Assembly: GCF_026571515.1 (NCBI RefSeq)
Contig: NW_026863698.1
Span: 1 to 64,000, forward strand
Reading direction: 5' to 3'
Source of the DNA: Ruditapes philippinarum
Lineage: Eukaryota
Length of the DNA: 64,000 nt
Numbering within the stretch: the first letter of the stretch is position 1; every line of letters begins with the position of its first letter. The translations under genes were made by a program, and so were the position numbers. Below, one piece after another: positions 1 to 35,905 of this stretch. The notes under the pieces are model-generated. The model was not told where the DNA came from and searched no databases. It saw only the letters and a program-made list of their open reading frames with translations.

Positions 1-346
1 AAGTTCCGCCCATTGTTTTCCTCGTTTGGGCACACGCTTTTTATTACTTGGGGACCCAATACGCCGCTTTTCATGGAAATGGCCGGTAGTGTCACATTGA
101 AGGTTCCATGATAACCGCCGTATGAACACATCTGCGGATGTTTCTAAATTCAAAAATTTACTATTTCATGTTTAAATGTTGAATTCTGCTTAAGCCGGAT
201 GCTAGGGGGCGGGTGGACGGTAACTTGCACTTTCCAGTACCGTCCATGAAACAGGCTCAATCAAACCGAGCCTGCAACATTTTCAATTTTGCCGTGTTGG
301 GCTCTCTTTAGGGATTCTGTATTTATCTATTTAATAAAACCTAACA

Positions 347-471
347 AAATCTTCACTATCCATGTGGGATTCCTTTGAGAGTTTACCCTGGATAGACTTT
401 TCTTATTAATTAAAAGTATCTTCACTACTCATCTGGGATCCCTTTGAGAGTACACCCCGAGTAGACTTTTC
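347..471. repeat. Two-copy ~70 bp imperfect tandem duplication
   Basis: atcttcacta..cat.tgggat.cctttgagagt..accc.ga.tagactttt occurs twice. Confidence 0.7.
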
Positions 472-1061
472 AACTTAAAATGAATATGTTTACAAATGAT
501 TACACGTGCACAACAAAAAGTGTTTGTATTCTTTTAATAACAAAATCCTTTCGTCTTAAACGAAAATGACGAAGCAACTTTATTCGCTCCTTCTCGGTCA
601 GGTGTGGAAGATAATTGCCTTCCAGAATCGATAACAACGTCCTCATCTTTGTTTGATGACACTGACCCTACGACCTCAGGAAGGTCTAAATCAGCATTTG
701 CCCACTTACAACATTTAGCCAACCTATTTTCTATTACTTTACATGCATTACATTTACAAAAAACACCTTTTAGTATGGGTGCTGTCAAGTTTTTCTCCAA
801 CCGAGGTTTGATCCTGCGAACGGCACCAAAAAATATTTAAGTTAATGTAACGTTATTCTTAAAATAATTAACAAACGAAAACGATCGTCATAGTGATTTA
901 TTCAATTACTGTCCTTAACATAAGTTAGGTAATTCAAGAACAGAACTACAAGAGACTCCACACTTCTAAAACAATACAATGCTTTTTATTAATGACTTTG
1001 CCCAAACGTGCTTATGACAGCTAAATGACATGCCAAAGTAGGGCCAATCACTTTTAGTGTA

Positions 1062-1285
1062 GCCGCCTCCGTGGTCGAGGGGTTTAGAGTCGATGACTTC
1101 TAATCCAGTTACCTCTCTGGCGTGGGTTCGATCCCCGGGAGATGCTTTGGTAGTTTTAGCGCGGAGGAAGGTAGTCTAGTACTGGTGTAACTCTCCAGGA
1201 ACGATGGTTAGGAAACTACCCGCCTATATGACTGAAATACTGTTTGGAAAAAGGCGTAAAAAATCAAACAAACAAAACAAAACAA
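1062..1285 (+). mobile_element. tRNA-derived SINE (old copy)
   Basis: A-box-like gtggtcgaggggttt, B box GGTTCGATCCC, and 3' tail tatatgactgaaatactgtt...ggcgtaaa followed by (CAAA)n. Confidence 0.75.
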
Positions 1286-1349
1286 GCCATGATGTTGATG
1301 ATGATGAACACCTAAAAAAATAAAAAGGGAAAAATGGTTTCATTCTTGT

Positions 1350-2516
1350 TTAGATCTTAATTTGTGAGGATGGGCGATGAAGAACTGCTGGAGAGAATGC
1401 AAATAAATCAACTGATTCCAGGGATTCCCAGAGATTCTTGTGAGTGCATTAGTGGAACAATGGGAATTCTCCACTTGTTGTCTGGGTACAGCAGCTTGCA
1501 TCTCTACTACAACTTCATCTGGTATTTTATGTCCTCTTCCTCTCCGTCTCTTCTTTAATTGTTTTAAACAACATTATAATGATAGCACCAATGAAAAATA
1601 ATGATGACGATGAGGCTAATTGATCATGATGACATAAACTATGAATTAAAAAAAACTTAAAAGAATTTACAGCTTCCTCATAAAAATTTTCATTGCTTTG
1701 TGTAGGTTCAAGATATGTTTCAGTAAAGAGGCAGTCCTATGAATTGAATTTTGAACTGATTCCATTTCAAATTGCACTATCTTACTATTGTTTATCACTA
1801 TTCTCATGAATTATTATAGGCTTAAAGGATTTATGATATTTTCTATAAATGTATACTAAATATGATTATGAAAATCAGAAGTAATATACTTAAAGTACCT
1901 ATTAAACTCCAAAAAACATCTTAAACATGTTCGAGCCTTCATTTTTAACATCAGTAAATATTTTTACAAGGAACAGAAGTTGTAAACACATTATTAAAAC
2001 ACTGATACTTGAAAAGTGGTATTGGTTTTATAAATAATATACAAAGGAGTGATATTACCTTTGGATAGGGAAGCAGGTGGGTTTGGATTTAGAGTTGTAG
2101 ATTCTAGGTTGTAGTTCTTGGGTTGTAGGTGGGTTTTTGGTTTGGGACTCATAGATTCTGGGGATGATGGGTAATGATCTTTTGTTTCTTGATCGGTTGT
2201 GTAATCATCAGCTGAAATGATAAAAAATAGAGGGATTGGCAATAAATTCAATCTTGTTTATAAAATGATTATTTAACTAATGCGTTATTATTAGCTGAAA
2301 GGAAATAATATTTTAGAGAAACATTTATTTCCGTAGAAGTATTCAACTAAAGTTTCTTATCAGTTTACTATCCTTTAAAATTTAAAATAGTAAGAATCAC
2401 TAAGTATAACTTTCAGTGGTGAATATATTTTAAGATTTCAATACAACATGATCACTATAAAAGTACACACCTGCTGATGTTGTTGTGATGTCTGCCATAC
2501 CATGTACCATATGCTG
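1350..2516 (-). pseudogene. Decayed spliced gene for a probable single-pass membrane protein with Pro/Ser/Thr-rich stalk
   Basis: Exon ~2060-2211 (DDYTTDQETK...PPASLSK) has a canonical cag acceptor and gtaata donor, phase 1-1. A short exon lies at ~2472-2514. A hydrophobic stretch (..FIGAIIIMLFK) followed by KKRRRGRG is readable at ~1500-1640 only across frameshifts. Confidence 0.35.
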
Positions 2517-2800
2517 TAAGAAACATACATAAAATAACAATCTAGAATTAAAAATTTAATAGAGAGATAAATCACAACAGTCTCATACAGATCTATGCAA
2601 TTTATTATAACTTAAGTCACTTCAAACAACCTCGTTGTTGGACTAACCTTTTGATGACATAGTGTGTTGATATAACACATTCATAGTCCTGGGTTCAATC
2701 CCAGGCAGAGACATATATAGAGTTTTCTCCACTAAATGACTGGTGTATAACATAACACCGAGTTATCATCACTTTTTTGTAATTTCAGTGTGCTATTTAA

Positions 2801-5102
2801 ATGAAAACTGGACAAGCAGCTCACATGAATTGTAATTTACAATGCAAACAAGTTAATTTTATTCCAGTAATTTTTCATAACTTGAAAAATTTTGATGCAC
2901 ATTTATTATGTCAAAGTGTAGGATCCTTCAAAGATTATAAAATAAAATGTATACCACAAACCATGGAAAAATATATTAGTTTTAGTGTAGGAAGTCTTAG
3001 ATTTATTGACTCCTTTGCATTTTTACCATCTTCTCTAGAGACACTTGTTGATAATTTAACTCAAGATGGATTAAAAGGTTTTAAACACTTTCAAACTGAA
3101 ATCAAAGATCATACAGAACTGTTATTAAGAAAGGGGGTTTATCCCTATGAATACATGAACCAATGGGGGAAATTTGAAGAGCAACAGCTTCCTCCCATGC
3201 ACGAATTTTACTCGTCACTTACAAATGAAAATATTTCAATGCAAGAGTATGAATATGCTGTACGAGTTTTCGAAGCATGTGGTTGTAAGTCGTTAGGAGA
3301 ATATCATGATCTATACTTGAAAACAGATGTATTATTGCTAGCTGATGTGTTTGAAAATTTCAGAGATATGTCATTAAAATGTTATGACCTTGATCCATGT
3401 CACTTTTACACCAGTCCTGGTCTTAGCTGGCAGGCAATGTTAAAAATGACTGACGTTAGCTTAGAACTCATGACGGATATAGACCAAATTCTGTTTATTG
3501 AGAAGGGTATTCGAGGAGGGATCAGTCAGATTTCCAATAGATACAAAAAAGCAAATAATCCTTATTTAAGTGAGTATGATCCCACAAAAGAAAAGAATTT
3601 TTTGGCATATTACGATATAAATAATTTATATGGTCTGTCGTTATCTGATAGATTACCAATAGGTTTCTTTAGATTTTTATCTGAGGAAGAAATTAAATCT
3701 TTTGATGTTAGGAAAATACCAGAGGATGGATCTAAAGGATATATTTTGGAAGTAGACTTAGAATATCCAGAGAACTTACATGATAGTCATAATGACTATC
3801 CTTTGGCTCCAGAAAGAAAATTTATACCTAATGAAAAATTATCACCTTACGCACAACGTGTATTGAAAAAGCTTCATGGAAAACAAGCAGATGATCCAAT
3901 ACCCCCTAGAGCGAAAGTTGAAAAACTACTCACCACTCTTGAAGATAAAGAAAAGTATGTACTCCACTATAAGAATCTACAGCTGTATCTACGTCTAGGG
4001 ATGAAGCTGAAAAAAATTCACAGAATATTAGAATTTCAACAAGAAGCGTTCATGAAACCGTATGTTGAGTTCAACACAAACATGAGAAAACAGGCTAAAA
4101 CGACCTTTGAGAAGAATTTCTACAAATTGATGAATAATTCTGTGTTTGGTAAGTACATTCTGTTTAATACTGTATATTTCTATATAAGTAAACATTCTAG
4201 ATAATAATTAAACATTCTAGATAATTAATAAACATTCTAGATAATAATTAAATATTCTAGATAATAAATACATTGTATTTCTATAATTACAAAATGAGCT
4301 TACTCAGATTCGACCGTTACTAAATTCACATTTATTTTTACTTTCAGGAAAGACGATGGAGAATCTTAGAAAGCATCGTTCAGTTGAATTGGTACATACA
4401 GAAAAACGCTTAAGGAAGGTATCAGCCAAATCTACCTACAAGCTACATCGAATTTTCTCTGAAGATCTTGTTGGAGTAGAATTAAACAGATTGAAAGTAA
4501 AACTGAACAAACCTATATACATTGGGATGACTGTTTTGGACTTATCCAAAAGGAGCATGTATCATTTCTTTTATGACCATTTAAAAGAATTGTATTCCGA
4601 CAATGTTTCCTTACTTTTCACTGACACTGACTCTTTATTCATTTCATGTAAATGTGAGGATCTATTCCAAGATATGTATGATTATGCTCATCTTTTTGAT
4701 ACTTCTGACTTTCCGAAAGATCACTTTTTACAAAGTGATATCAATAAAAAAGTTATGGGGAAAATGAAAAGTGAAACCAATGAAAAATGTATTTCAGAAT
4801 ACTGCGGTCTCAGATCGAAAATGTATGCTTTTAGTTGTGATGGTAAAGAAGACAAACGTGCCAAAGGTATAGCAAAAGTGGTTGTCAAAAAAGACTTAAA
4901 ATTACAGCATTATAAAGATGTATTATTCAATGATTCTCAATTAGTTTCTCGAATGAATACATTTCGCAGCCATAATCATAAAATTTATCTCGAAAATATT
5001 AAGAAGATTGGACTATCTTGTTTTGATGATAAGAGGTACTTATTAGAGGATGGTATTACATCGTTAGCGTATGGACATTACAAAATAGAAAATACTAATT
5101 AG
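2801..5102 (+). CDS. Protein-primed family B DNA polymerase (Polinton pPolB), N-terminally truncated, 2 exons: join(2801..4148,4348..5102)
   Basis: Motifs HNLKNFD (ExoII), YLKTDVLLL (ExoIII), RKGVYPYEY, RGGIS, YYDINNLYG (motif A), FTDTDS (motif C), GLRSKMY, KGI and DDKRY are present. Removing intron 4149-4347 (gtaagt...ttttactttcag, phase 1) restores motif B KLMNNSVFG-KTMEN. Confidence 0.95.
4189..4270. repeat. ~20 bp minisatellite (taaacattctagataataat) x4 inside the polymerase intron
   Basis: Direct reading of repeated units. Confidence 0.85.
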
Positions 5103-5211
5103 ATATTTATTCTATCAGCTATGACAGTTCAGAGAATATAAATATTTCACAGCACACCCATCAACCAAACAACTTTTTATGTTTTTTGTTTGTTTTCTCT
5201 TCTTTTCCGTC

Positions 5212-7216
5212 TTATTGTGCAAGTGTAACCTAAAAAAATGAAATATTAATGTGTATAACAATTATTCTTATTGTCATTATATTAATGTGTAGAACTACTA
5301 TTATTACCATCACATTAATGTGTTTACCATTTTAAATGTTTAATAAAGAGTTTCAACAATTCTGTCTCAGTATCTTTTTTATCTTTAGAAATGTCTTACC
5401 GGAATGGCGTAAAAGATACTGTCCTCCCCCTCGAATTGGTCATCCTGGTTATTATATATGGCGACCTAAGAATGTTAATTAAGATGAATATGTAAATGTG
5501 TACATACTATTATATATCTCAAATATTTTACATTATTTGCAATTCATTTAAATTATTGCTAACAAAAGATGAAATGTATTAATTAGCATATAAATTAAGC
5601 AACAGGTGAAATGTATGTTAAAGTATTAATTAGCATATAAGTATTAGTTTAATCAACTTACACTCCAGCCTCTTCAGCAGACTGATATTATCTTAAATTT
5701 AAGATGACTTATTAATATGCAAAGATGTTATTTACAAATATGATATATTTTTATACTATAAATTATAAAATGAAGTGGTATGGAGTAAATATATACTTTG
5801 ATGTTTACGTTAGGATAGGTTGAAAGATGAATCTTGCACATAAACTTACGGCTTGAGCAGAAACAATCTGCTGTGGTTGTTGCATCTGCTGTGGTTGTTG
5901 CATCTGCTGTGGATGTTGCATCTGCTGTGGTTGTTGCATCTGCTGTGGTTGTTGCATCTGCTGCTACTGTTGTTGTTGAGGTTGTTGCATCTGCTGTGGT
6001 TGTTGCATCTGCTGCTGCTGTGGTTGTTGCATCTGCTGCTGCTGCTGTTGTTGTTGAGGTTCTTGCATCTGCTGCTGCTGAGGTTGTTGCATCTGCTGCT
6101 GTCGCTGTTGTTGAGGTTCTTGCATCTGCTGCTGTCGCTGTTGTTGAGGTTCTTGCATCTGCTGCTGTCGCTGTTGTTGAGGTTTTTGCATCTGCTGCTG
6201 TCGCTGTTGTTGAGGTTCTTGCATCTGCTGCTGTCGCTGTTGTTGAGGTTGTTGCATCTGCTGCTGATGCTGTTGTTGAGGTTCTTGCATCTGCTGCTGA
6301 TGCTGTTGTTGAGGTTCTTGCATCTGCTGCTGTCGCTGTTGTTGAGGTTCTTGCATCTGCTGCTGTCGCTGTTGTTGAGGTTCTTGCATCTGCTGCTGTC
6401 GCTGTTGTTGAGGTTGTTGCATCTGCTGCTGATGCTGTTGTTGAGGTTCTTGCATCTGCTGCTGATGCTGTTGTTGAGGTTCTTGCATCTGCTGCTGATG
6501 CTGTTGTTGAGGTTGTTGCATCTGCTGCTGATGCTGTTGTTGAGGTTCTTGCATCTGCTGCTGATGCTGTTGTTGAGGTTGTTGCTGCTGTACCTGCAGA
6601 TGTGGGTTTTTTTAGAAAATATGAACATGAATAAACTGAATAAATATTGAATATTTCAGAACATATGTTTCACATCCTTAAGATAAAATGTTAGCACTTG
6701 GATTCTTAACACATACAAGTTCAAAATATGTGTCTTCAAACCACTTAATGCTATTTTTTATGACCAATAGTTTAAACATCAACGATTCCCTAAAACGGAT
6801 GCAAATACTGGTTAAATTTCCAGGAAGAAGTCACCCTGAGCGTGATTAATATAAGTTGTAAGAACTTGTTACACAATCAATGTAAAATAAATAGGTTTTA
6901 ACCAAATGATAACAATAACTTAGAAATATTCTTAACAAACCTGTGGTGATGTACTGTTGAATATATCCGCATAATGTTCCACTCTTAGGAGTAATTTCCG
7001 AAGTTCTTCAATCTCATCTTTATTAAATGTTATAGATTTTGATTTTGAAAAATCGAATTTTCCCCCAGGGCTATTGAAGCAGCCTTTTTTGTCTGATATA
7101 TGCACATATGTCCTCCCGTTAAACGGGGTGATACATATCTCCTTATTTTTCCCAAATTGGGAAGATGCTTTAACTATTCTGTTATCATAACTTCTCTTTT
7201 CGGTGAAACTAGCCAT
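5212..7216 (-). CDS. Multi-exon PC4/Sub1-like domain + polyglutamine-repeat protein (premature TAG at 5964-5966)
   Basis: Exon 1 6941-7216 has a PC4-like pattern FGKNKEICITPFNGRTYVHI...KSITFNKDEIEELRKLL and a gtttgt donor. Exon 2 5850-6593 (cag|GTA, in frame, Gln repeat) ends at a gtaagt donor. A mini-exon at ~5662-5681 has uncertain phase. Exon 5400-5465 reads VAIYNNQDDQFEGEDSIFYAIP. Last exon 5212-5229 reads VTLAQ*. Confidence 0.7.
5866..6590. repeat. Coding minisatellite: ~15 x 33 nt (MQEPQQQ[H/R]QQQ) plus 18-nt units (MQQPQQ)
   Basis: Direct reading; it explains the multiple overlapping ORFs on both strands. Confidence 0.95.
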
Positions 7217-7307
7217 TTTTAAACAAGGAATAGTAACCAATAAACTCAATGAATAGTAAGCAGTAAACTCAATGAATAATTTGAGGAAATTGTTTAAAAA
7301 CAAAATG

Positions 7308-7506
7308 TTTTATAGTCATCAGCTGATGTTCTTTCGTGGTCAATTTTTTAAACTGAAAATATACTACCCTTGTGATTGGTTCATTAAAAAGCATCTATAT
7401 TAGGGGCATTTTCATTGGTTAGTGTTTTATATCTTTACATCAATTTACTTAATTTACTTTTCCATTGGTTCTGTAATAAACATCTCTGAAAACAAATTTA
7501 CATTGG
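7308..7506 (-). promoter_or_regulatory. Putative Pol II promoter of the PC4-like gene: TATA box plus four CCAAT boxes
   Basis: CTATAAAA (minus strand, 7308-7315) lies ~90 bp upstream of the ATG. CCAAT occurs on the minus strand at 7375, 7414, 7464 and 7502. Confidence 0.5.
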
Positions 7507-7919
7507 ATAATCAACCAAACGAGTTAAAGTATTTGCATTATTAAACTATTGTCGTTTTTTTTTTTTTTTTTATATCTATTTTACGGAATGGTAAACGTAA
7601 ATGAACTAATCCTACAAGTGCCGCAAATGATGAAGTAGTTAATATTGCTGCAAGAAAATGAAGCTCAGCTGAAACAACACCTTTTTTTCTCTATCACATG
7701 TAACATTTAGTACCTTACAACCTTTCATATCTTTTCGCTACATTAAATTATTTGAGTTAATTAAGCGATAACAAGTTTGACCTTGAACTTTATATATTAT
7801 AACACGCAGTAGAAGAAAAAACGGTAAAAGGAAGAAAACGCAAAGAAAACTGCCATGTATTTGATATTTTTGTATCTGCTACCTACTTTGGGCGTAAAAT
7901 CAGTGCAGACATCTATCGA

Positions 7920-8306
7920 CATGACAGCTGATAAAACAGTGTGTGTCTTTTTATTAAGAAGTGGTTGAACTAATAGAAAACGAGAGAAAATATATATTAC
8001 AACTAATAAGTATTTTATTCCATCATTATATTTTGAAATATTTTCAACTGACATAAGATCCATATCAGCTTGATCGTTTAAACCTGCTACTTGTACATTT
8101 GGGGTATTATATCTATGTCTTATTTGTTTTTGTACTGCATACGCATCTTGATTATTCAACCATTTCTTGATGAAATTCAAACTAAATACTCCAGGGTATT
8201 TTTCAGATAATAGTTTTAACAACTTTGTAGCACCTAAATAACTTCCAGGATTTTTTACATCAAAATAGTACTCCAAGAGAATGTGTTCCTTCTGTGTCTT
8301 ATCCAT
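7920..8306 (-). pseudogene. Polinton-type retroviral-like integrase, N-terminal part only (3' truncated)
   Basis: From ATG 8306: YYFDVKNPGSYLG...WLNNQDAY...QADMDL...NDGIKYLLVVIYIFSR...PLLNK matches the Polinton integrase N-terminus. Similarity is lost after ~7920, so the rest of the DDE core and the chromodomain are absent. Confidence 0.85.
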
Positions 8307-9203
8307 TTTTATATGCCCGAAAGGGCATATTATGTTATACCCCCTGGCGTCCGTTTGTCTGTCCGTCCGTACGTCCGTCCGTCCGTTAGCAATTTGGTTT
8401 CCGGAGCATAACTTAAGTTCCATTTGGCCCACAATGTTCAAACTTCATAGGATGATTGCCCATATTGGGTAGAAGACCCCTATTGATTTTGGGGTCAAAA
8501 GGTCAAAGGTCAAGGTCACTATGACCTTAAAACTGAAAACAGTTTCCGGAGCATAACTTAAGTTCCATACGACCCACAATGTTCAAACTTCATAGGATGA
8601 TTGTCCATATTGGGTAGAAGACCCCTTTTGATTTTGGGGTCACAAGGTCAAAGGTCAAGGTCACTATTTCCTTGATACTGTAAAACACAATATTCAAACT
8701 TCATAGGATGATTGTCCATATTGGGCAAAAGACCCCTATTGATTTTGGGGTCACTAGGTCAAAGGTCAAGGTCACAATTACCTTAAAACCAAAAACAGTT
8801 TCCAGAGCATAACGGAAGTTCCATTTGGCCCACCATATTCAAACTTCATAGGATGATTGTCCATATTGGGTAGAAGACCCCTATTGATTTTGGGGTCACA
8901 AGGTCAAAGTCACTTTTACCTTAATACTGAAAACAGTTTCTAGAGCATAATTAAAGTTCCAATTGGCCCACAATATTCAAACTTCTTAGGATAATTGTCC
9001 ATATAAGGTAGAAGACCCCTATTGATTCTGGGGTCACAAGGTCAAAGGTAAAGTTCATTAATAATAACTTAAGTATTAATCAACCTACAGCTGTAAAACT
9101 TTATAGGATGAACAGCGAATTCCCATGTCTTACAAATGCTTCATCCTTACTAAAAAAACAACACTTTCGGGCATATAATGCTCCGCCTAGCGGTGCTCTT
9201 GTT
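8307..9203 (+). mobile_element. Non-autonomous Helentron/pearl-like element with internal tandem repeats, inserted immediately upstream of the integrase ATG
   Basis: T-run start, subterminal IR tatatgcccgaa / ttcgggcatata, (GTCC)n microsatellite, ~5 units with ggggtcacaaggtcaaaggtcaagg, and 3' hairpin gctccgcctagcggtgc followed by tcttgtt. Confidence 0.85.
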
Positions 9204-9359
9204 GATACTTGTAAATGAAGAAATATGCTTAAATGTGAAATGGATTAGACAAGACTGAACACATTCTTTATTTCAACTATTAAAAAATAACAAGACACTT
9301 TTTATTACAACCTTTTACTAAGATAAAAACAAGTGCTTATATGTTATTTTACATGATAA

Positions 9360-9813
9360 TTATTTGTTTGCGAGTACCTGTTTGTGCAAGTAAATCACTT
9401 CGTGTGAAAGGTTAAGTCCTTGTACTAAGACTTCCCATGCTTGCAACACTTTGGTTTCATCTACTTCCAGTAACATTTCTTCAAAGTAAAAGTCATAGGC
9501 TTGCTCGTCATCATACATAAGGTCGCTCATGATACAGTCATGTTGTGTCAGTGAAGGGTGATCTATAAAACATCCATAGCAATGTTTCTTCACTATCATA
9601 CTTTTTACGTTAATCAATGCTTTTGCATATACAAAGTCAAAATATGAGTTCATCAACATCACGCTAGTTGCAGGAGGTGTACAATGGTTAATAGTAACAT
9701 GACTTTGCTTCATTTCATCCAGCTCCTCCTCATCAAATTGTGTAAGAGTCACTCCGTTCATTGTCACTATCCACATATTCATTGTTTTCAATTTCTAATC
9801 TCAGATTTGCCAT
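9360..9813 (-). pseudogene. Polinton accessory ORF with CxGCxxxHPSxxxHxC motif, frameshifted near the 5' end
   Basis: Motif HCYGCFIDHPSLTQHDC. The probable true start ATG 9813 (MANLRLEIENNEY..) is out of frame with the rest. Confidence 0.6.
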
Positions 9814-9942
9814 GTTTATACCAGTAGTGCAAGGGCAAAAATGTTTTTGAAGTTTTACAGTGGTTAACTTATATATACGTACGTCTATACAGCTTGGTTT
9901 TCGAAATAACGGTTATTTCAAAATTTGTATTTTCACTTTGCT

Positions 9943-10299
9943 CTACCGCCAAAAAGTGAGGTGCTCTCCCACTGAGCTGCTCCATTTTAGATCCTCATCT
10001 AGAAGAGAAATATTTTCAGACCGATTTGATTGTCCAACCATTTTCAGAAATAAAAAACTTTTTGAATGAATACCGTGTTCTTTCATTGGATCGTCTGTCT
10101 TTTTCCATTGATTGAGTCTAATAGCACAGGAAAAACATTGTACAATATCTCCTCTCCCCGTATAATAAAATCCAGCAGATGCCAGTTCATATTTATTAGG
10201 TTGAATTTGTTGAGACCAGGATTCGAACGTTTGTAGTCTATTCTCATACAGTTTAAGCTCTGGTGATTTAAACTCTATACCTAAACCCGTACATTCCAT
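9943..10299 (-). CDS. Single-BIR-domain inhibitor-of-apoptosis-like protein (fourth Zn ligand Cys replaced by Phe)
   Basis: RLQTFESW...LASAGFYYTGRGDIVQCFSC...WKKTDDPMKEH is the BIR consensus. The ORF is intronless and has no RING. Confidence 0.9.
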   Translation of the reverse strand: MECTGLGIEFKSPELKLYENRLQTFESWSQQIQPNKYELASAGFYYTGRGDIVQCFSCAIRLNQWKKTDDPMKEHGIHSKSFLFLKMVGQSNRSENISLLDEDLKWSSSVGEHLTFWR

Positions 10300-10602
10300 T
10301 ATGACTGTCCTTGTAAAAATGAACCTAACAACTGAATGCTTTCCTTTAAATCACACAAAGATTCAAACTGTTTCATATCTATAGATAATGTGGATTTTCC
10401 TTTTTGTAAAATAATCACCGTTTTACTTCGTTTTTTCTTAATAGTTTATAAATGTTTATCATCTAAGCTACAACGAACCTCTTTTGTTATTGGACACCAA
10501 TTAACAGTCTGAAAGCCATAAGTTTTCAAATAATATAAAGATTCCTCACTAAACATCAATTGTGCTTGAGCCATGCTTTTAGAAACAAATAAACAATCGT
10601 CT

Positions 10603-10878
10603 TTAAATATTACGAAGCATTCCTTCTTCTAATGATTCGTCTGCCATTAAATTTGGGGTAAAATTACACAACTCGTGCCACCAATGTCCGTTTTGTAAAT
10701 ACCTATTTGCCGCAAAAGTAAAGCGTGATGGATAAGCTTGTAATAAACCAATCATATAATAATGCGACCAACGAAGGCTATGAAAAACATCTTGTACTTC
10801 TGCATCTACCCAAGGATATCTTTCATCTTCATTTAACCAAAATGAATTACTGTTTACAGCATAACGTCTCAAATCCAT
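10603..10878 (-). CDS. Small Trp/Tyr-rich orphan protein (paralogue A)
   Basis: Aligns by eye with 11190-11477 (MDLRxY..FWxNxxERxxWxDxEV..YMIxLLxxYPSxF..HWWHELCxFTxNLM); protein-level conservation supports coding. Confidence 0.75.
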   Translation of the reverse strand: MDLRRYAVNSNSFWLNEDERYPWVDAEVQDVFHSLRWSHYYMIGLLQAYPSRFTFAANRYLQNGHWWHELCNFTPNLMADESLEEGMLRNI

Positions 10879-11189
10879 TCTGATGTTAAAAAGACAATCA
10901 TCAAGTAATCTTTAACGTAAAGCATTCAACAACCGTAGTTTATACCCCTCGCTTAATTTCAAACTGGTTGCTTACATTTAAAAAAGATCACTAGTTATTT
11001 CCCGCCATATTTGACCGCCAACTGTTTGGAATACATTCACGTCCAGCCACAATCAAAAGTCGTGATGAAAATTAGGTTCTATACACAAGATAATGCATAG
11101 TTTTCAATGAACAATCACAACAGTACTTGAAAGATTTAAGTGTTTTACTAAAAAACTTGTTTCGACAGTCATGTTAGAAGTGGAACGAT

Positions 11190-11477
11190 TTATTGTCTAG
11201 GTATAAAGTCTTCTACATCATAAGCTTGATTTTTCATTAAATTTGAAGTAAAATAACATAACTCGTGCCACCAATGCTCACCCTCTTCATATCTATAAGC
11301 TACTTCATTAAATTCTGAGGGATAATGTCTAAGAAGATCAATCATATAAGACCGTGTCCATCCAACATGATAATTAACACTGAACACTTCGTCATCAGCC
11401 CATGAGTGTCTCTCGTAATCATTCACCCAAAAGGATTCAAAAATGCTACCGTCTATATCATAACTTCTCAAATCCAT
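11190..11477 (-). CDS. Small Trp/Tyr-rich orphan protein (paralogue B)
   Basis: Paralogue of 10603-10878; shared upstream motif atttcaaactg.ttg.t..catttaa. Confidence 0.75.
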   Translation of the reverse strand: MDLRSYDIDGSIFESFWVNDYERHSWADDEVFSVNYHVGWTRSYMIDLLRHYPSEFNEVAYRYEEGEHWWHELCYFTSNLMKNQAYDVEDFIPRQ

Positions 11478-12148
11478 TCTTAAAAGTTAAAATATATCCA
11501 ACACCACTGATGGCTAATTAATACCCCTAGACCGTTGTCAATACAATAGCTCTCCACCAAAAGCTGAAAGGTGATATTGATCGTTTGCATTTCAAAAACT
11601 GATTTCAAACTGATTGTTATCATTTAAGAAAAACCCCGCTCTACTAGTTTAAATCGATATAGTTTAAAAAATGGCGCTAAACCCTGTCATCTACCACGTC
11701 GTCTGCTACACCGCCATCTTGGAACCTTGAGTCATCGTCTCACGTTACTAACGTCGGCCATATTGCGCCGCCGGCGCAAGATGGCCGCGAAATTATCAAT
11801 TTTACACTACTAATATTTACAGATTTATCTTTCTTTGAACTTAGGATTTTCTTTAAGAAATATTATAACTTCTTTACTTTTTAAGGTATATACTTCAAAC
11901 TTCAAATATATGTTTCTTATCATTACACACATGTTGTGTGAAATGTTCATAACCCAAGCATGACTTTTTTTAGAATTATTCCTCTTGATCTTGGAATTTA
12001 TGTTAACAAATGGTATTTTTTTACTATAACTTAATACATAATTATACATAATTGGTTTTTCTTTCATAGTTTTGTCCTCCTTACTGCGTCCAGTATTTTA
12101 TTAGTCGAGCTTGGCTGTCTCCTGTGACAGTTCTTGTTAGAAATTGAT

Positions 12149-12330
12149 GTTTCTATTTTTAGAAATTGCGTAATGTTTCTATTTTTAGAAATTGCGTAAT
12201 GTTTCTATTTTTAGAAATTGCGTAATGTTGCTATTTTTAGAAATGCGTAATGTTGCTATATTTAGAAATTGCGTAATGTTTCTATTTTTAGAAATTGCGT
12301 GTTTCTATTTATAGAATTGCGTGTTTCTAT
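12149..12330. repeat. 26 bp minisatellite (tttctatttttagaaattgcgtaatg) ~7 copies
   Basis: Direct reading; flanked by Helentron-like 3' hairpin ends at ~12104-12138 and ~12450-12485. Confidence 0.85.
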
Positions 12331-12710
12331 TCATATATATATACAAAATAGATAAACAAAACTTATGTGACAGACCAACTTAATTTATAAAAAGGAAACG
12401 TTAAGATATGTTCAAACCTTTCTATGTTTGCGTTTAGAAAAAGTAAAAAGTCGAGCATTGCCCCCGCCCGGCGGTGGCTCTTGTTTAATCTACTGTCGCC
12501 ATCTGTAATGTATAAAGAATAAACAGTATTATACCTTCGTTAATTGTGAAGACCTATTTTTTATAATACGTGTTAGCAAATCCCACCAAGCGCATTTTGG
12601 AAAGAAAGACCTGAGTTCGTATAACCACAGAGTTGGGTATACATTGTAAAAATACTTCACACTCTTCATTATTTAAATGTCCATATATGAACATAATTAT
12701 GTGGTAATCT

Positions 12711-14160
12711 TGAGGTAACAAAAATATATTTGCATTGATACATGCTGGTACATATTTCTTTGTTTATGTTAATATAGCTTTAAAATAAAAGATAAACTCA
12801 AGTTATAATTAGAATATATGATACGTATGTTCAAGTATTAATTAGCATATAAATTTTGAATCATATCAGTAATGGCTTAATCAACTTACTTAAGGGGATG
12901 ATACTCCAGTGACCTTAGCAGCAGCATCAATTTGTTGTTGCTGAGGTGGTGGTGTTTGTTCCGGTTGCTGTTGCTGCTGTCGAAGTGGTTGTTGCTGTAG
13001 TGGTTGTCGCGATGTTGTTAGTGATGATGATGTCTAAAACATGCAATCTCAATTTATAACATAACATTATACATATAAAAAATATACTATAACATTGTAC
13101 ATGCATCTTACTAAAAATGTTAGCACTTATACTTAGATACATACATCTTAAGCATATACCTTTCAATGAGTAAATGATATTTTGTCTATGATCAATAATT
13201 TCTAACATCATAAATATAAAGTATAAAACAAACCTGTGTGAATGTCTTATTTGAAATGTTGCATTTTTTATATTTTAAAAAATGAAAATGTCTTACTGGG
13301 GTGGCTAAGAAGTACTCGTCATTCCCATCAAACTTGTCTTGAGGATAAAGTGTAATCTGGAGGTAACAAAAATATATTCGCATTGATACATGCTGGTACA
13401 GATTTCTTCTTTTTTTATGTTAATATATCTTTAAAATGAAAGATAAACTCAAGTTATAATTAGCATATATGATACGAATGTTAAAGTATTAATAATCATA
13501 TAAATTTTTAATCATGTCAGTAATGACTTAATCAACTTATTTAAGGGGGTGATACTACAGTGACCTCAGCAGCAGCAACAATTTGTTGTTGCTGAGGTGG
13601 TGGTGTTTGTTCCGGTAGTGGTTGTCGCGATGTTGTTAGTGATGATGATGTCTAAAACATGCAATCTCAATTTATAACATCAAACATATAAAAAATATAC
13701 TATAACATTATACATGCATCTTACTAAAAATGTTAGCACTTATACTTAGATACATACATCTTAAGTATATACCTTTAAATGAGTAAATGCTATTTTGTCT
13801 ATGACCAATTATTTCTAACAACAAGCGAGGTGATATCTAAATGCTATAAAATAATAAAATAAAATAAAAAAAATGACAAACCTGCGTGTTGGTTAATTTA
13901 TCATGATAATAATCCACTCTACCTAGCAACTTTTTCAGTTCATCAATTTCCTCCTTGCTGAAGGAAATAGATTTGGTTTTTGTAAAGTCAAATTTACCGC
14001 TAGGGTTGTTAAAACAACCCTTGACGTCGGATATGTGGATACATGTATTCCCATGAAAAGGGGTCATACATATTTCTTTATTCTTTCCAAATTTTGAAGA
14101 AGCTTTCACTAGAACGCTATTGTAATTTCGTTTTTCAGTGAAACTAAACATACATGACAT
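12711..14160 (-). pseudogene. Second PC4-like/Gln-rich gene (paralogue of 5212-7216) with an internal ~650 bp tandem duplication
   Basis: Exon 13882-14160 is highly similar to exon 1 of the first copy, with the same gtttgt donor position. A Gln/Pro-rich exon occurs twice (~13540-13652 and ~12890-13033). Exon ITLYPQDKFDGNDEYFLATP is homologous to exon 5400-5465. Confidence 0.7.
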
Positions 14161-14785
14161 GTGGCATTATAAGGTAAACCCACTAGTGGGTATATGTCAG
14201 TCTGTTTGTTGGATTTCTTTCCCTTGACGGATAGCGTCTTTCTCTTCCTTCTCTTGCTTGCAATGGAATTTGTTCATCGTGATTATAAAATCCATACTGT
14301 ATCCAATTAAAAAAATATGATAAATGTCTGTCATAAAAATGTATAAACTAATCACTGTTGTAAACATGATAAGTTACATATATCTCACGCGTGTTAATTA
14401 ATACTGTCCTGTTTATTGAGAGTTTAAATATCAATATAATTATATCGTTATTCGTGTAAATTAAAATATAATTCTTGTTTTAAAAATATATTATTCTTGA
14501 TTAATACATCGTTTCTGTTTCGTTTGAAAAAAGACAGTTAAATAAAAATATTTATATTTGCGCTCCCTGGCTATGCCACATGAAACACAAGAGCAAGTGG
14601 ATTGAAAATGTCTGGCATTTAACCAATGCCAGACCTTTTATAAACACTAGGGGCGCGTTTGTTTTGCATAAACCGGTTTCAGTAGTAGGTTTAGGTTTTA
14701 TGACAAATTATTTTGAAACCAAAACTAGTTTAGATGGTTTGCAGTTGCTACTACAAATGCATGGTTTTACAAATGGTTTGCAATC

Positions 14786-15937
14786 ATGGCAGAACTTGTG
14801 GCAGCATTGCAGGGAATTTTTGAGGATGAAGATAAATCAGACGCTAGTCATGTTTATTTATCTTCCAGAAATCACGCGATATATGCTCAGATCAGTGGTG
14901 TGCTTGCATTTAGTACACTTCGTCATGAAAAAAGTAGAATTCGTGGTTATGTGGAGACTGTCTACCGTCAATACACCATTGATGATTTCAAAGACCGTTT
15001 TCGAATGAACAGAGACACATTTGAAAAACTCTTACATATGATGTCACCTTTTTTGAAGAACTCAAGGGGTGTACACCAGATTACGGCTGAGAAAAAACTA
15101 CTGTTGTTCATCAAATATCTTTCTACGCAAACTACGTTTCAGCAACTAGCAGACATCTTTGGTGTGTGTGAAACAAGTGTCCATTCTGTTATCCACGATG
15201 TGTCTGAGATGATTTGCGTCAAACTTTTGCCCGAGTTGATAAAATGGCCAACAGGTAAAAAAGCCAAGGAGACAATAGATGGCTTTCAGCAACTAGCTGG
15301 CTTTCCTGGGATAATGGGCACTATTGATGGTAGTCACATTCCCATCCGTACACCGTCAGAATTTCCAGAAAACTACATCAATCGTAAACAGTACCCTTCT
15401 ATTGTTTTACAAGCCGTGTGCGATAGTAAGCTACTATTCATCGATGTCTTTTGTGGTTGGCCAGGATCAGTCCATGACTCAAGAATCCTTAAAAATTCCC
15501 CACTTATGGATAAAATTGAGGCTGATGTTTCGCAAGTTTTCCCAGGTAACACGCATCTCCTCGGAGATTCAGCATATGCCCTAGCATCTTGGATGATGGT
15601 TCCTTACAAAGACTGTGGCAATTTAAACAAAGATCAAAAGACATACAACTACATTCACAGTTCCACAAGGATGTGTATTGAACGTGCTTTTGGTGCGTTG
15701 AAGGGGCGGTTTCGAAGGTTAAAGTTTATTGACTTGAAGGACATTTCTTGTATTGTACATATTGTACTTAGCTGTTGCACCCTCCATCAGCTTTGTGTCC
15801 AGTGCAGAGAAGACCTGCTGGATTACATCACTGAAGGAATGGCTGAAGCTGACGAGGCTAACTATTTTGAGAACTTCATGCCACTTTGTAGCAGTGCAGA
15901 GATGAAAAGAAAAACGATTGTTTGCACTCTCAAATGA
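14786..15937 (+). CDS. Harbinger transposase (HARBI1-like DDE nuclease), intact, 383 aa
   Basis: Motifs FRMNRDTF, IDGSH, NRK, GSVHDS, LLGDSAY, YNYIHSSTRMCIERAFGALKGRFR and LHQ. Confidence 0.95.
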   Translation: MAELVAALQGIFEDEDKSDASHVYLSSRNHAIYAQISGVLAFSTLRHEKSRIRGYVETVYRQYTIDDFKDRFRMNRDTFEKLLHMMSPFLKNSRGVHQITAEKKLLLFIKYLSTQTTFQQLADIFGVCETSVHSVIHDVSEMICVKLLPELIKWPTGKKAKETIDGFQQLAGFPGIMGTIDGSHIPIRTPSEFPENYINRKQYPSIVLQAVCDSKLLFIDVFCGWPGSVHDSRILKNSPLMDKIEADVSQVFPGNTHLLGDSAYALASWMMVPYKDCGNLNKDQKTYNYIHSSTRMCIERAFGALKGRFRRLKFIDLKDISCIVHIVLSCCTLHQLCVQCREDLLDYITEGMAEADEANYFENFMPLCSSAEMKRKTIVCTLK

Positions 15938-20023: not shown

Positions 20024-22754
20024 TTACTTGGATTTTGAAATAGCATTAACCAATTTATCAAAAAGTTCTAGTTTGCTTTTCTCATTTGCCATACGGTCTT
20101 CGTGCTGTTTGGTTAAAACTTCCATTAACTGTTTTTGTTCCTGCTTCATGTCATCACGCATCTCTTGTAGCATTTCAACAACTGCATCCTTGCGGTTATG
20201 CTTCACCTTTGGCTTCTTTGATGTTTGTTTTTCTACATCTTTCTCATCTTCTGTCTCTACAGAAGAGCTTTGAGTCTGAGGTGACTTGATGGAGCTGCTT
20301 ACATACAATGGAGTAACATTGGGTCTGTACCCGTAAAAGTCCTGCAGTTCATGGAAGTAAGGGCATTCTTTTCGCTCATTGCCTGATTTCATGTTATGGT
20401 CAACTGTGTCCCTATACACTTTAGTAATATTTTTCCATTTCTGCTCGCACTGAGTAGCTGAATATGTACCATTTAACTTGGTTTCTTTGTTGATATCTGA
20501 TGCAATAATGGACCAGATAGTTTTTTTCTTCAGTGAAGGTTTTCTGAAGTCAGCCTCGTGGTCTTGATGCAGGGCAATCAGCTTCAGGACTGCGGGTTTT
20601 GTCCAAACTTGTTTCTCAGACTTCATGTTTTCCGTAACAACATCTGGCTCAGCAGCATCTGTAGTCCCATCATGGCCATTCTGGCTTGTTGGTGCTATAA
20701 ATAAAATCAGTCCTTCACCATGAAATAATAATGTGAGCATTTATGTGTGACTGAATACATTTGAAGTCAAGTTGTTTAACATTTTCGGTCAGACCACAAT
20801 AATATGCGATTAACACTTGCAATATTTTTGTCACTATGACAACCACAATAACTTCAAAGCAGTCAAATGAAGGAATGGATGCTTATGCCGCACAGTAGTA
20901 CAGCTTTTACCATCTGATCTTGATGGTATGGTTGTGTTTTTGGTTACTTAAAATAGTCAATTAAATCCGGAATGCAACGTGGTATACTGGATATTATATC
21001 CATCTTCATTTTTAAATAAACTATATAACTCCTTGAAGAAACTCCTTGCTATTGGTTAGCAAGTCATTTTTGACTGAGAATGATTATGCTGTTTGCTGGC
21101 AATACAGCGGCAGACACAAATACAGACAAGCTGAAGCTAATAGTTGAATTTGAAAGTTGATAGTATGATGCAAAAAAGCTCCGATAATCTACACAGATAT
21201 ATCAAGATAGTAATAATGCAAAAAAGCTAATGTGCTTAGACGAATGGCCACTTCTCCATTAACTGTCTGAAGAGATGTCGTTTGTAGCAAATGTTTATGA
21301 TGACGGCAATTAAACCGATGATGTATATCAGACCATGACATAAGCTCTCCTAAGCTTTACTAGTATGTGACCAGCAGTGCTAATAAAAAATATGGCTGGA
21401 GATGTTACTTACCTACACCATCTGAAGAGGAAGATGTTAACCCAGTTGATCTAATCTCTGGCATTTCGCATGGTGTGCCTGTTCCCGACTCTGTATCTCT
21501 GTCATCTGTAATGGATTATGGAAAGATTTGTTTATGTCACTTTCAGTCATTGTATTACATGGTACAAAATGTAATATACATGCATATAGAGCTGGTAGTA
21601 GGACACATTTCTGTAAGGACCGTTAAGAAATGAAAATACTCAACACATGGAAGATTTCCACGTAAATTTATGAAACTTAATTATACAAGATTGCAGGGTA
21701 TGTCATACATTCTACATAGAAAAAACAGTACCGCTGTTAGCTACAACCTTTTCTTAAATATGATACCCATTTCCATGTCTCAATCATGCCAAAATTTATT
21801 TATTGAAAATATCAACTTATTAAGACACTTCTGTACTGCTAGATCGTTTCAATGTTCAATACAAACTTTAATGGTCATTCGATCAATGTTTGGAAGGTCA
21901 ATGTTAAACTCCAAGAAGTTAGATACCTGTATGATTTGTTGTAGTATGATTTGTTGTAGTGCATATGACTTTGTCAAACTCGTCCCAATCAATCAAGGTG
22001 CACAGCACCCAAGGATGTATCTCCTCGACTGCATCCTTACCAAGACCATTAAGGTTGTTCAGCACTCTCTGGAACACTGCGTTTGTATATTGCCGGACAA
22101 TGACTGGAATGTCTGCTGGGTACATGCTGCTTTCCAGCTGTTCTCTATACTTTTCATCACATGCCAAATAACTCTTCAGAGTTTTTCTTGAGAGGTGTTG
22201 ATGGAAACGTTCCGGGATGACACTGTGTAGAGGCCCAATAGCCATAACCCTGAAACATTTAAAAAAGGATCTGCCCTGTATGACATACATTTGTAGCCTA
22301 CATGAGCGCTGATGAGTACACGACTGTCTGGGGTACGAAGGTTTACAGTCAAAATGCCCCCATTTTGGAAAATGAAATCATGTTTAAATACCTCTTTATA
22401 GTCAAATTTTTAAAATTAATGATTTAAAACGGATGGAAGTTGTTTTGATTGGAATGGGAGCGATTTAGGTCGCAAATTTGGACATTCTCACTTTTTGTGG
22501 GTGCCAAAATGGGGACGTTTTGACTTGGGGGCATTTTGACTTGCAACCGGGTACGAATTATCTTGAACGAATTTCAACATAGAATTGGTACAAATGTTCT
22601 TTGCCGATCGCAGAGAGTGCCTTTACAAAATGTTATTTTGTAACTGAGCCCACATACACAAACATACCATTTAAATAACATTGGCCTTTCGCCATAATTG
22701 ACAAATTCTTATGTTTCTTTACCTGTTTCCATTTTCATCCACGAGGTCCGCCAT
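20024..22754 (-). CDS. Harbinger Myb/SANT (trihelix-like) DNA-binding protein, 4 exons, ~372 aa: complement(join(20024..20694,21413..21505,21927..22249,22723..22754))
   Basis: All introns are GT-AG with compatible phases (2,1,1), giving 1119 nt open. Myb/SANT pattern WTKPAVLKLI..W..IA..QCEQKWKNI..Y..CPYF and a C-terminal coiled coil. Confidence 0.85.
22340..22548. mobile_element. MULE/Mutator-type MITE in intron 1 of the Myb gene
   Basis: TIR ggtttacagtcaaaatgcccc / ggggcattttgacttgcaacc; perfect 9-bp TSD gggtacgaa. Confidence 0.88.
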
Positions 22755-23490: not shown

Positions 23491-24637
23491 ATGGTGGACA
23501 ATGTATCCAGATATCTAATTTTAGAAGAATTAATGTGTTCTGAATACGATGACAATATTCTTTTGCTACAAAAAATAACCAGGAACACAGTTTGTAGCAT
23601 GGCTGTTGCCACCACAACATTTAGAGAAAGAAAAAAAACGAATCCAGAACTATGTGGAGGGAGTATTGCCATATTATAGTGTTGATGATTTTAAGGACAG
23701 ATTCCGAATCAGTAGGGAAACATTCGACTCGTTAGTAGAACAAATGATTCCATACATAGGTAAAGGGGAAATATGCGTTGAAAAGAAACTGCTAATATAT
23801 GTCAAGTATATATCAACGCAACAGACGTATCAAGCTTTGGCAGATATATTTGGGGTATGCGAGTATTCTGTTCACAAATGCATTCATGAAATTTCAGAGA
23901 AAATTTGTAAACACTTGCTACCAGATTTAGTGAAATGGCCAGAGAAACGGACAGCTGATAGAACTGTAGATGGATTCCAGGAAATCAATGGTTTTCCAGG
24001 TGTCATTGGAGCGATTGATGGAAGTCATATCCCTATCCGCACCCCAACAGAATTCCCAGAAAACTATATTAACAGAAAAGGTTACCCTTCCTTGATACTT
24101 TAAGCAGTTTGCGACTGTAACCTTAAGTTTTTAGATGTATATCGCGGGTGGCCTGGGTCAGTGCACGATGCACGAGTCCTTAGAAATTCCCCGTTATTCA
24201 AGAGTGCTTCAGCAGCTGAAAGTGAAGAAATCTACATGTTTCCCATCAACACACATCTACTTGGAGATTCAGCCTATCCACTATCCAACAGGTTAATGGT
24301 ACCTTTTAAGGACTTTGAAAACCTCAATGAAATCCAGAAAAGGTACAATTACAAACATAGTTCAACAAGAATCTGCATAGAAAGAGCTTTTGGAGCTCTG
24401 AAAGGACGCTTTCGCAGACTGAAATTTGTGGATCTGACAGACATCAAAGCTATTGTACATGTTGTACTAAGTTGTTGTTGTCTTCATCAACTTTGTCTGT
24501 ACAACAGTGCTGAGGACATCCTAGAATTCATACAGGATAGCGCCGAGGACAACGAAGAGGTCAACAATTTTATGGACATTTGTAAAACATGTGCGTCAGC
24601 TGACGTGAAACGAAAAGCCATTGCCGACCTTTTGTAA
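23491..24637 (+). pseudogene. Harbinger transposase pseudogene (frameshift in the A-run ~23630, nonsense TAA at 24101)
   Basis: Three ORF pieces align to 14786-15937 (IDGSHIPIRTP, GDSAY, IERAFGALKGRFRRL). Confidence 0.9.
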
Positions 24638-28789: not shown

Positions 28790-30450
28790 TTTTTGGCCGG
28801 GTTGCACTGGTGCAAACCCGGGTTATAGTATGGGTGAATGTTGGGCGGCGGGGCGGTTGGCGGGCGGCGGGCGGGCGGGGCAAAAACTTCAGCAAACCAC
28901 TTATCACAGCCTTTTAATATTTGGTATACAGCATCAACACATGGTCCCATGCTGTGGGATTCGATTTCAGGTCTGTCGCTAATCTACTTCCTGTTTGCTG
29001 ACCTATTTAAATTTTCAACATTAATGGTTAATGGTAGGAAATTTTCGTAACAGTTTTCTCAGCAACTACTTATCACAGTCTTTTGATATTTTGTATACAG
29101 CATCAACACATGGTCCCATACTGTGGGATTCGATTTCAGGTCTGTCGCTGATCTACTTCCTGTTTGCTGATCTACTTAAATTTTCAACATTAATGGTCAA
29201 TGGTACAAATTTTCGTAACAGTTTTCTCAGCAACTACTTATCACAGCCTTTTGATATTTTGTATACAGCATCAACACATGGTCCCATACTGTGGGATTTG
29301 ATTTCAGGTCTGTCGCTCATCTGCTTCCTGTTTGCTGACTTTGTTAAATTTTCTACATTAATGGTCAATGGCAGGAAATTTTCGTAACAGTTTTCTCAGC
29401 AACTACTTATCACAGCCTTTTGATATTTGGTATACAGCATCAACACATGGTCCCATACTGTGGGATTCGATTTCAGGTCTGTCGCTCATCTACTTCCTGT
29501 TTGCCGACCTAGTTAAATTTTGGACATTAATGGTCAATGGTAGGAAATTTTCGTAACAGTTTTCTCAGCAACTACCTATCACAGCCTCTTGATATTTGGT
29601 TTACAGCATCAACACATGGTCCTATACCGTGGGATTAGATTTCAGGTCTGTTGCTCATCCACTTCCTGTTTGCCGACTTAGTTAAATTTTCTACATTAAT
29701 GCTCAAAGGTAGGAAATTTTCGTAACAGTTTTCTCAGCAACTACTTATCACAGCCTCTTCATATTTGGCGTACAGCATAAACATATGGTCCTATACCGTG
29801 GGATTTGATTTCAGGTCTGTCGCTCATCCACTTCCTGTTTGCCGACTTAGTTAAATTTTCAACATTAATGGTCAATAGTAAGAAATTTTCGTAACAGTTT
29901 TCTCAGCATTTACTTATCACAGCCTTTTGATATTTGGTATACAGCATCAACACATGGTCTCATATCGTGGGATTTGATTTCAGGTCTGTCGCTCATCCAC
30001 TTCCTGTTTGCCGACTTAGTTAAATTTTCTACATTTATTGTCAATGGTAGGAAATTTTCGTAACAGTTTTCTTGGCAACTACTTAACACAGCCTCTTGAT
30101 ATTTGGTATACAGCATTATCACATGGTCCCATACTGTGGGATTTGATTTCAGGTCTGTTGCTCATCCACTTCCTGTTTGCCGACTTAGTTAAATTTTGAC
30201 ATAATTAATGATCAATAGATAGGTAGGAAATTTTCGTAACAGTTTTCTCAGCAACTACTTACCACAGCTTCTTGATATGTGGTTCACAGCATTGACATGT
30301 GGTCCCATATTGTGGGATTCCATTTCAGGTCTGATGCTCATTACCAACTAAGTTAAATTTTCAACATGAATGGTCAAGACAGTGGTAGAAAATTTAAGTA
30401 ACATCACAGCCTCATGATATTTTGTATACATATGCAACCCGGCCTTTTCT
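28790..30450 (+). mobile_element. Helentron/pearl-like element with ~9 x 169 bp tandem array
   Basis: IR ggccgggttgca / tgcaacccggcc, (GGCG)n microsatellite and a homogeneous 168-169 bp array. Confidence 0.85.
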
Positions 30451-31006
30451 GTCTTTGACCCATTTTTTTGATTACCTTTTGCCTTGCAGCTTTCCGACAA
30501 AGTACCAGGTGGACTGTCATCTGTGGATGAGTTATGAGGTGGACTATCACCTGTGGATGAATTACGAGGTGGGGTGTCATCAGTGGATGAGTTACAAGGT
30601 GGATTGCCATCTGTGGAGTAGTAACCAGGTGGGCTGTCATTTGGTAAATTGGGCTTCTGGGTTTCTGTGTGAAATAAACAAATATTAACTCTATACAATC
30701 CCACTCAAGTATCTATACCTCATGTTTTCAATTAGGGATTTAGCCTCAAATCTATCTCAGAACTTTCGAAAGTATTTGTATATCGAGGGGAAATGAGGAA
30801 GAGATCTAAGTGCTTCTTTATTTATATGCACTTAGACCTCTTTCACATTCACCACTCGATATGTATCCTGGATATAACTATTTTTACTATCAAACAATAG
30901 AACTACAGACTGACTTGATCATGAAACTAAACCAAATGTGCTATATGTTTAGCATGTTTAGTTTAAAGATAGTTATTTTAAACTGATTGTAAACAAAAGC
31001 TCTTGC

Positions 31007-35700: not shown

Positions 35701-35905
35701 CCTAGTTAACTACTAACATGGCATCATGCGTGACATTGAAATTGAGAGCAGAATATCACCAAAGGGGTAAGCCAAAGGTGCCATTCCGTTTCGACGGTTG
35801 ATAATATCAATGTTGCACATGCTTCCTTAATACATTTATTTTATTATAACAAACAAAATTAAGCACATAAATGTTTTAAAATGTTCCTGATAGTCAAAAT
35901 GTCAC

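Follow-up and report, generated by a model that had tools for sequence, protein, structure and literature searches.

The window, i.e. the whole 64,000-nucleotide stretch of clam DNA that was analysed, carries a Polinton DNA polymerase gene interrupted by a host-type spliceosomal intron within the glycine codon of catalytic motif B. The intron is removed in RNA, is common to sister elements and is likely spliced constitutively, and the lineage would need splicing in order to produce a working enzyme. This reading was assigned a probability of roughly 0.86.

The motif-B intron and its removal in RNA

The intron was read from the window sequence as a 199-nt, GT-AG, phase-1 interruption at 4149–4347 on the forward strand that cuts the Gly codon of KLMNNSVF-G-KTMEN (motif B) after its first base. 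Its donor (GTAAGT) and acceptor (3' end TTTTTACTTTCAG) both conform to strong consensus. In a scan of all 199-nt windows on both strands of the 64 kb, a GTRAGT start paired with a pyrimidine-rich YAG end occurred in 1 of 127,602. The G+C content of the intron is 0.21 versus 0.32–0.33 in the exons, and every frame within it contains 6–8 stop codons. Exon 1 (2815–4148, +), delimited by PF03175 and by alignment to the homologue P0286, starts at AAHMNCNL, includes motif A (DINNLY) and ends on the first base of the Gly codon in motif B. Exon 2 (4348–5102, +), supported by its open frame, its motifs and dN/dS against C13927, holds KTMEN, KPIYIG, motif C (FTDTDS) and the stop. Both frames are open, as the original prediction had stated. 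Removal of the intron restores an uninterrupted KLMNNSVFGKTMEN-type motif, as is present in 33 of 56 polymerase loci from the same genome and 41 of 66 metagenome loci. Within the intron, a repeat search returned a 20-nt tandem repeat in 4.2 copies (4184–4267, +). A putative branch point with a TTACT core lies at 4317–4323 (+), 31 nt before the intron end; the core is conserved 26–35 nt 5' of the acceptor in all four introns of the window clade. Rfam returned no match, and with that no group I/II-type catalytic RNA, in window positions 1–15000; the intron itself is 199 nt at 21% G+C.

Seven sequencing runs (X1, X3, X4, X10, X18, X23 and X24) were compared with the window, of which X10 alone behaved as RNA. 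The proposed junction between 4148 and 4348 was recovered in X10 (RNA-Seq on record) as exact removal of 199 nt with GT..AG ends, in one 831-nt contig of depth 10.9 that links 3590–4147 to 4347–4619 and has 255 letters on the shorter side of the junction. Contig depth in X10 was zero at 4160, 4190, 4198, 4226, 4296 and 4339, all within the intron, and both exons were covered. The DNA-like runs keep the intron: X1, X3 and X4, treated as DNA given their even coverage of flanks and intron, have contigs that run into it. A contig from X18 spans the intron, and the full joint tables of X18, X23 and X24 contain no 199-nt skip. Although labelled RNA-Seq, X23 and X24 show loose ends at GATC sites, as proximity-ligation DNA does, and are therefore uninformative on splicing; no skip was listed among their 743 and 785 placed reads, respectively. 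By its consensus ends, its removal in RNA and the restored reading frame, 4149–4347 is a U2-type spliceosomal intron, and the earlier claim that the two open reading frames are one gene split by a phase-1 intron is confirmed by the frames and the X10 junction. The splicing evidence consists of one contig from one run, and as contigs carry neither strand nor level and lose rare forms, we infer constitutive splicing and regard it as likely.

Coverage in X10 extends over 2937–5087 and excludes the unique flanks, although flank gaps in X10, X18, X23 and X24 are no proof that the locus is absent. Past 5087, the X10 and X18 sequences match C13927 rather than the window. On account of this C13927-type 3' end, the spliced RNA derives from a sister element and not from the window copy. 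Its source is a near-identical sister that is absent from the assembly, where no second copy more than 81% identical to the window polymerase was found. Over 5088–5140 this sister joins window-type coding sequence to a C13927-type 3' end, which amounts to recombination between Polinton families. Depth also varied between runs: over the polymerase (2815–5087) X23 reached about 47, compared to about 0.9 in the flank and a single-copy expectation of 1.4, and when X23, X24 and X18 were compared with X1, X3 and X4, polymerase depth in the latter three equalled flank depth. Copy number of the family thus seems to differ about 30-fold between animals, a figure that library type may bias.

A broken window copy and its intact relatives

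The window copy is a dead, defective fragment that arose by an inversion and a deletion of about 6.9 kb, and is not an autonomous Polinton. Its polymerase carries motifs A, B and C of a protein-primed family B polymerase, matches the PF03175 profile at E values of 9.9e-20 to 2.8e-18, and has lost its 5' 643 codons. The window frame is identical at 455 of 456 positions to residues 644–1099 of P0286, a 1107-aa gene call on a metagenome contig that reads into the same intron, the alignment beginning at window-frame residue 6. Upstream, positions 2801–2814 (+) are non-native bases of a rearrangement junction that supply the apparent ATG of a 467-aa frame, as judged from the P0286 alignment and from homology to C13927, which begins at 2815. 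The 467-aa retention product of the original prediction is accordingly a truncation artefact: its ATG at 2801 is junction sequence, the native part starts at 2815 and 643 residues are missing. An AG at 2787–2788 was considered as an upstream acceptor of the native gene and rejected, as sisters have native sequence 5' of 2815; an X18 contig runs upstream of 2815 with native polymerase sequence, and no splicing into this AG was seen.

Relative to C13927, window positions 2815–7796 are inverted and about 6.9 kb have no match in the window, namely the 3' half of the integrase gene, the capsid, protease and ATPase genes and the 5' part of the polymerase. A six-frame scan of the window found none of the YADFE, Walker A, protease and capsid motifs. 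In X1, X3 and X4 the locus is single-copy with shared flanks. The 14 best-supported variants listed for it comprise 7 synonymous, 6 replacement and 1 stop, and the 33 best-supported listed for sisters comprise 23 synonymous, 10 replacement and 0 stop. An allele of the window copy in X4 has a premature stop at 3512.

The remainder of the element lies on the reverse strand. A remnant of a small accessory gene region, membrane-protein-like and located at the far end in C13927, occupies 1598–2251 (68% DNA match to C13927). A PC4-like accessory gene at 6935–7223 matches PF02229 at E 0.008, below the cut-off, and C13927 and C8727 each have a homologue in the corresponding position. The 5' half of a retroviral-type integrase gene (7926–8307; 81% DNA match to the start of the C13927 integrase) is cut at the second rearrangement junction, past which its frame runs on into unrelated residues. 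An open frame at 9360–9794 is a conserved accessory gene, common to C13927, C8727 and C12520, that has no Pfam match, and 9943–10350 encodes a BIR (inhibitor-of-apoptosis) domain as cargo (PF00653, E 1.1e-20). The terminus is at 11711–11811, where homology to relatives stops, with a terminal repeat ending ..ACACTACT (AGTAGT on the other strand). C11405 and C5092 carry the terminal motif as well, next to different flanking sequence, and the partner terminus of the AGTAGT end at 11811 was not found.

Several minor features accompany the element. At 5866–6585 (−), tandem repeats of 18–33 nt expand a Thr/Ala-rich accessory frame that is open in several frames. Arrays of 145–172-nt satellite-like repeats lie at 8397–9047, just upstream of the integrase gene and inside the element, and at 28889–43254. 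A second PC4/accessory fragment (12704–14151) just beyond the terminus is 91–94% identical to C13927. C15457 repeats much of the rearranged right part of the window at 96–97%, with window 6570–7504 present there several times in tandem. A DDE transposase gene, presumably of Harbinger type judging from PF13359, lies at 14729–15937, followed by a Myb/SANT partner gene (20024–20740) and a second, stop-broken transposase gene (23579–24637).

A GT-AG intron is located at the same base in C13927 (223 nt), C8727 (277 nt) and C6363 (about 220 nt), whose exons 2 are 81%, 66% and 66% identical to that of the window, respectively; C6363 has a repeat within exon 2 besides its intron. The introns of the window, C13927 and C6363 share homology: their alignment scores were reached in 0 of 300 shuffles. 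The interior of the C8727 intron has no detectable homology to the other clade introns (scores as high were obtained in 11–263 of 300 shuffles), and nevertheless the donor, acceptor and TTACT core are kept. Exon 2 divergence was estimated at dN 0.11 and dS 0.76 between the window and C13927, and at dN 0.225 and dS 1.83 between C13927 and C8727; exon 2 is thus under purifying selection. As the site is common to elements with exon-2 dS of 0.76 to 1.8, the intron predates their separate insertions. The suggested comparison of intron position with other Polintons therefore yielded the same site in three diverged elements and ruled out a copy-specific insertion. That the lineage relies on the host spliceosome, as the original prediction proposed, is likely in view of the single gene, the real intron, the shared site and the removal in RNA.

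The window element belongs to the Polinton/Maverick group by its polymerase and integrase and, at the level of the lineage, by capsid, protease, ATPase and termini. C8727 has inverted termini (101 bp, 98% identical, 19.7 kb apart, both starting AGTAG), with flanks that differ over 6 bp at the target site, and carries integrase, protease, ATPase and double jelly-roll capsid genes. The integrase homologue matches rve (E 9e-11) plus Chromo; the lineage protease matches Peptidase_C5 (E 1.2e-4, over the cut-off); and the lineage ATPase matches Pox_A32 (E 3.6e-4, under the cut-off) with Walker A present. For the capsid, sequence searches were unproductive and identity follows from the fold: a structural model with pLDDT 84.6 matches the capsids of PBCV-1, Sputnik and mavirus at E 4e-10, by which the predicted product is a double jelly-roll major capsid protein. 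PF21738 is found in 14–30% of members of the atlas clusters of its homologue. PDB sequence searches with the polymerase exon and the capsid returned nothing useful, a PHROGs search gave no match and a viral-contig scan found no relative.

Alternative explanations and known systems

The original prediction suggested that intron retention could act as an on/off switch for replication. Regulated retention that turns the polymerase off, for instance in soma versus germ line, as is reportedly the case for the intron of the P element, is improbable. A retained intron is predicted to introduce a stop after 53–55 nt of intron sequence, 898 nt short of the true one, with loss of motif C, and an intron in an essential motif would make any retention an off state. 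However, X10 depth is zero at all six intron places with the exons covered, both splice signals are of strong consensus, the read-through tail is not conserved among sister elements, its 467-aa product is an artefact, and intron position, length and presence differ between lineages. The switch is thus disfavoured relative to constitutive removal.

Still less probable is a polymerase fragment domesticated and owned by the host, with an intron acquired after capture, a scenario for which the accessible text on TLEWI (10.1101/656579) offers a precedent and with which the single-copy locus, its shared flanks in X1, X3 and X4 and the absence of a second copy above 81% in the assembly agree. Such ownership is at odds with a copy that lacks the first 643 residues and with them the YADFE exonuclease motif, and with the tally of its 14 best-supported listed variants given above. 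The same intron moreover occurs in complete elements that have capsid genes and inverted termini, and the RNA bears the 3' end of the sister. The least credible alternative is recent insertion of an introner or other mobile sequence into an integrated copy, as described for dinoflagellate Polinton-like elements in the accessible part of 10.1101/2025.03.18.643946. An introner class predicts many similar copies, yet the window and C8727 introns each matched only themselves in the genome, in a search that skips simple repeats. The sharing of the site across exon-2 dS of 0.76 to 1.8 refutes a recent, copy-specific version, although an ancient introner origin may apply.

The favoured explanation is a host-type intron inherited within the lineage. 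We infer that an ancestor would have acquired it at a time when the lineage was mobile and that it passed down through element replication, with nuclear transcription and constitutive removal by the host spliceosome. Bivalve Polintons would have gained and lost introns several times at proto-splice-type sites (G|G or AG|) of their polymerase, capsid and ATPase genes, this gain among them. Introns would thereby tie expression of the element to the nucleus. Adenoviruses, which are relatives of Polintons, and herpesviruses are nuclear dsDNA viruses with genes spliced by the host; in adenoviruses the polymerase has a short leader exon spliced to it and is not cut inside a catalytic motif.

The clam elements resemble the Polintons/Mavericks of vertebrates and nematodes (Orthopolintovirales, adintovirus-like) in their pPolB, chromodomain integrase, adenain-like protease, ATPase, double jelly-roll capsid, AGTAG termini and length of about 20 kb. 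They differ in that core genes of those Polintons are described as intronless, whereas the clam polymerase, capsid and ATPase genes have GT-AG introns. The earlier statement that core genes are generally described as intronless agrees with the literature to the extent accessible, dinoflagellate introners apart. Vertebrate core genes are called intronless in the accessible text of PMC8097293, citing Kapitonov and Jurka 2006, and nematode Polintons have introns in cargo genes only according to the portion available of 10.1101/2022.07.12.499685. Term searches of the accessible main text of PMC8502044, 10.1101/2023.08.22.554363, PMC11296320, PMC10294476, PMC11244446 and 10.1101/2025.04.19.649669, and literature searches that covered few subscription papers and no Repbase reports, returned no account of core genes with spliceosomal introns in Polintons of animals. 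Group I introns are described in protist PLVs (PMC12220804, accessible part). The dinoflagellate maverick-polinton-like elements also carry spliceosomal-type introns, but the available text describes those introners as multi-copy, mobile and mostly acquired after integration (10.1101/2025.03.18.643946), in contrast to the single-copy, old and position-conserved introns of the clam, an animal. TLEWI, a Tc1-like family of bivalves, likewise has spliceosomal introns in a normally intronless transposon gene; as far as its available description goes, it has no terminal repeats and looks domesticated (10.1101/656579), unlike the clam lineage with its termini and virion genes.

Polinton surveys, in the accessible text of PMC8097293, score elements as intact only with unbroken core frames and take long interruptions as decay; lineages with introns are therefore wrongly scored as fossils or end up annotated as genes of the host (P0003, P0219). 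A recent survey that places bivalves first for these elements took no account of introns in its available part (10.1101/2025.04.19.649669). In a tree, one polymerase copy of the analysed genome lies at branch length 0 from P0003, a protein labelled Ruditapes philippinarum, which makes the host a mollusc and probably the Manila clam.

Introns across polymerase, capsid and ATPase genes

Gain of introns by the lineage, as claimed originally, is likely, and introns also recur in other Polinton lineages and in other core genes. At least 63 polymerase matches were listed in the same genome and 56 loci were fetched; motif B was uninterrupted in 33, carried an intron in 13 and was unreadable in 10. 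The 13 comprise 4 loci from the clade of the window, 2 in which the intron is phase 0 and 7 from a distant clade. The phase-0 intron (C9746, C12520) lies 5 nt beyond the window site and is accompanied by a second intron at SIL|D. In the distant clade, about 30% identical, the acceptor falls at the same Gly site and members have up to two further introns. This very distant clade, including L051 (C14624), L047 (C6604), L063 (C7967), L061 (C9024) and three more, thus has up to three polymerase introns, and in its motif B (K..NL..GK) the usual aromatic residue is absent. Among 66 metagenome loci, 41 were uninterrupted, 24 were unread by the pattern and one (L205) had an intron, a 245-nt GT-AG phase-2 intron (L205:1965–2209) in the motif-B Ser codon, 8 nt upstream of the window site; six other gaps in these loci had no convincing splice signals. 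With 33 of 56 and 41 of 66 loci uninterrupted, the empty site is visible, and in several close rows of a 51-row tree, such as P0001 and P0308, the motif is likewise uninterrupted.

Of 120 public polymerase homologues, which include Mya, Mercenaria and lucinid-associated records, 18 end just past motif B with an intron-like read-through and 2 break at SIL|D. Sorted by eye from the protein tails, the 18 comprise 8 Gly-type (two ambiguous), 8 phase-0 type and 2 Ser-type; introns outside this genome were read from tails of protein calls, except for L205, which was read from DNA.

A tree of 51 rows required at least 10 changes of intron state; trees were quick trees with SH-aLRT support only. Grouping the 7 tested loci with the Gly-site intron into one clade was rejected by an AU test (p 0.017, on a quick tree with a long branch and a group named post hoc), which favours parallel gain over inheritance at this site, while an old intron lost many times also fits. 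Sliding of the intron by 5 nt finds a fitting AAG acceptor in the phase-0 intron; its Gly codons (GGG, GGA) hold no donor remnant, and GGTAAR occurs in 5 of 69 uninterrupted motifs.

In the capsid gene, a phase-1 intron near the C-terminus was found in C8727 (L039:6370–6489, 120 nt), C9746 (172 nt) and C12520 (160 nt), and C13927 has an exact empty site at this position. Among 120 capsid homologues, 71 break at the site, with G or S followed by read-through; 27 run on without a break, and none of these has G at the intron place; 6 are other and 16 unread. Walker A of the ATPase gene is split by phase-1 introns in two different glycines, in C2378 (L072, 121 nt), whose polymerase is intron-free, and in C12520 (L070, 113 nt). 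The ATPase gene of C9746 and the capsid gene of C14624 have candidate introns. All junctions printed have G as the last exon base, which is typical of proto-splice sites. These are rare animal cases of intron gain with visible empty sites, pairs of near introns 5 and 8 nt apart and probable parallel gain, by virtue of which models of intron origin become testable.

A more far-reaching reading, which we consider doubtful, is that a bivalve Polinton branch bearing introns is still active and has gained and lost them repeatedly at catalytic motifs, as an intron would help a long viral gene to pass as a host gene and evade the silencing of intronless transcripts. It draws on three intron positions that span about 13 nt of motif B, one being common to two lineages about 30% identical, on Walker A being split twice and on one capsid site in most close homologues. 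A match to DUF3715, which we take to be a TASOR-type domain, is present in the genome and has no bearing on silencing of these elements. Introns relieve silencing of long intronless transcripts in human cells according to the accessible text of PMC8770142, an effect that would apply to the clam as a hypothesis only.

Extra stretches of about 600 nt in C6760, C1974 and C13061 were not counted as introns, those of the first two lying within open frames of 1297–1325 aa. Another polymerase fragment, L083 (C4396), carries a 313-nt phase-0 GT-AG candidate intron at RNKK|VPGKMK.
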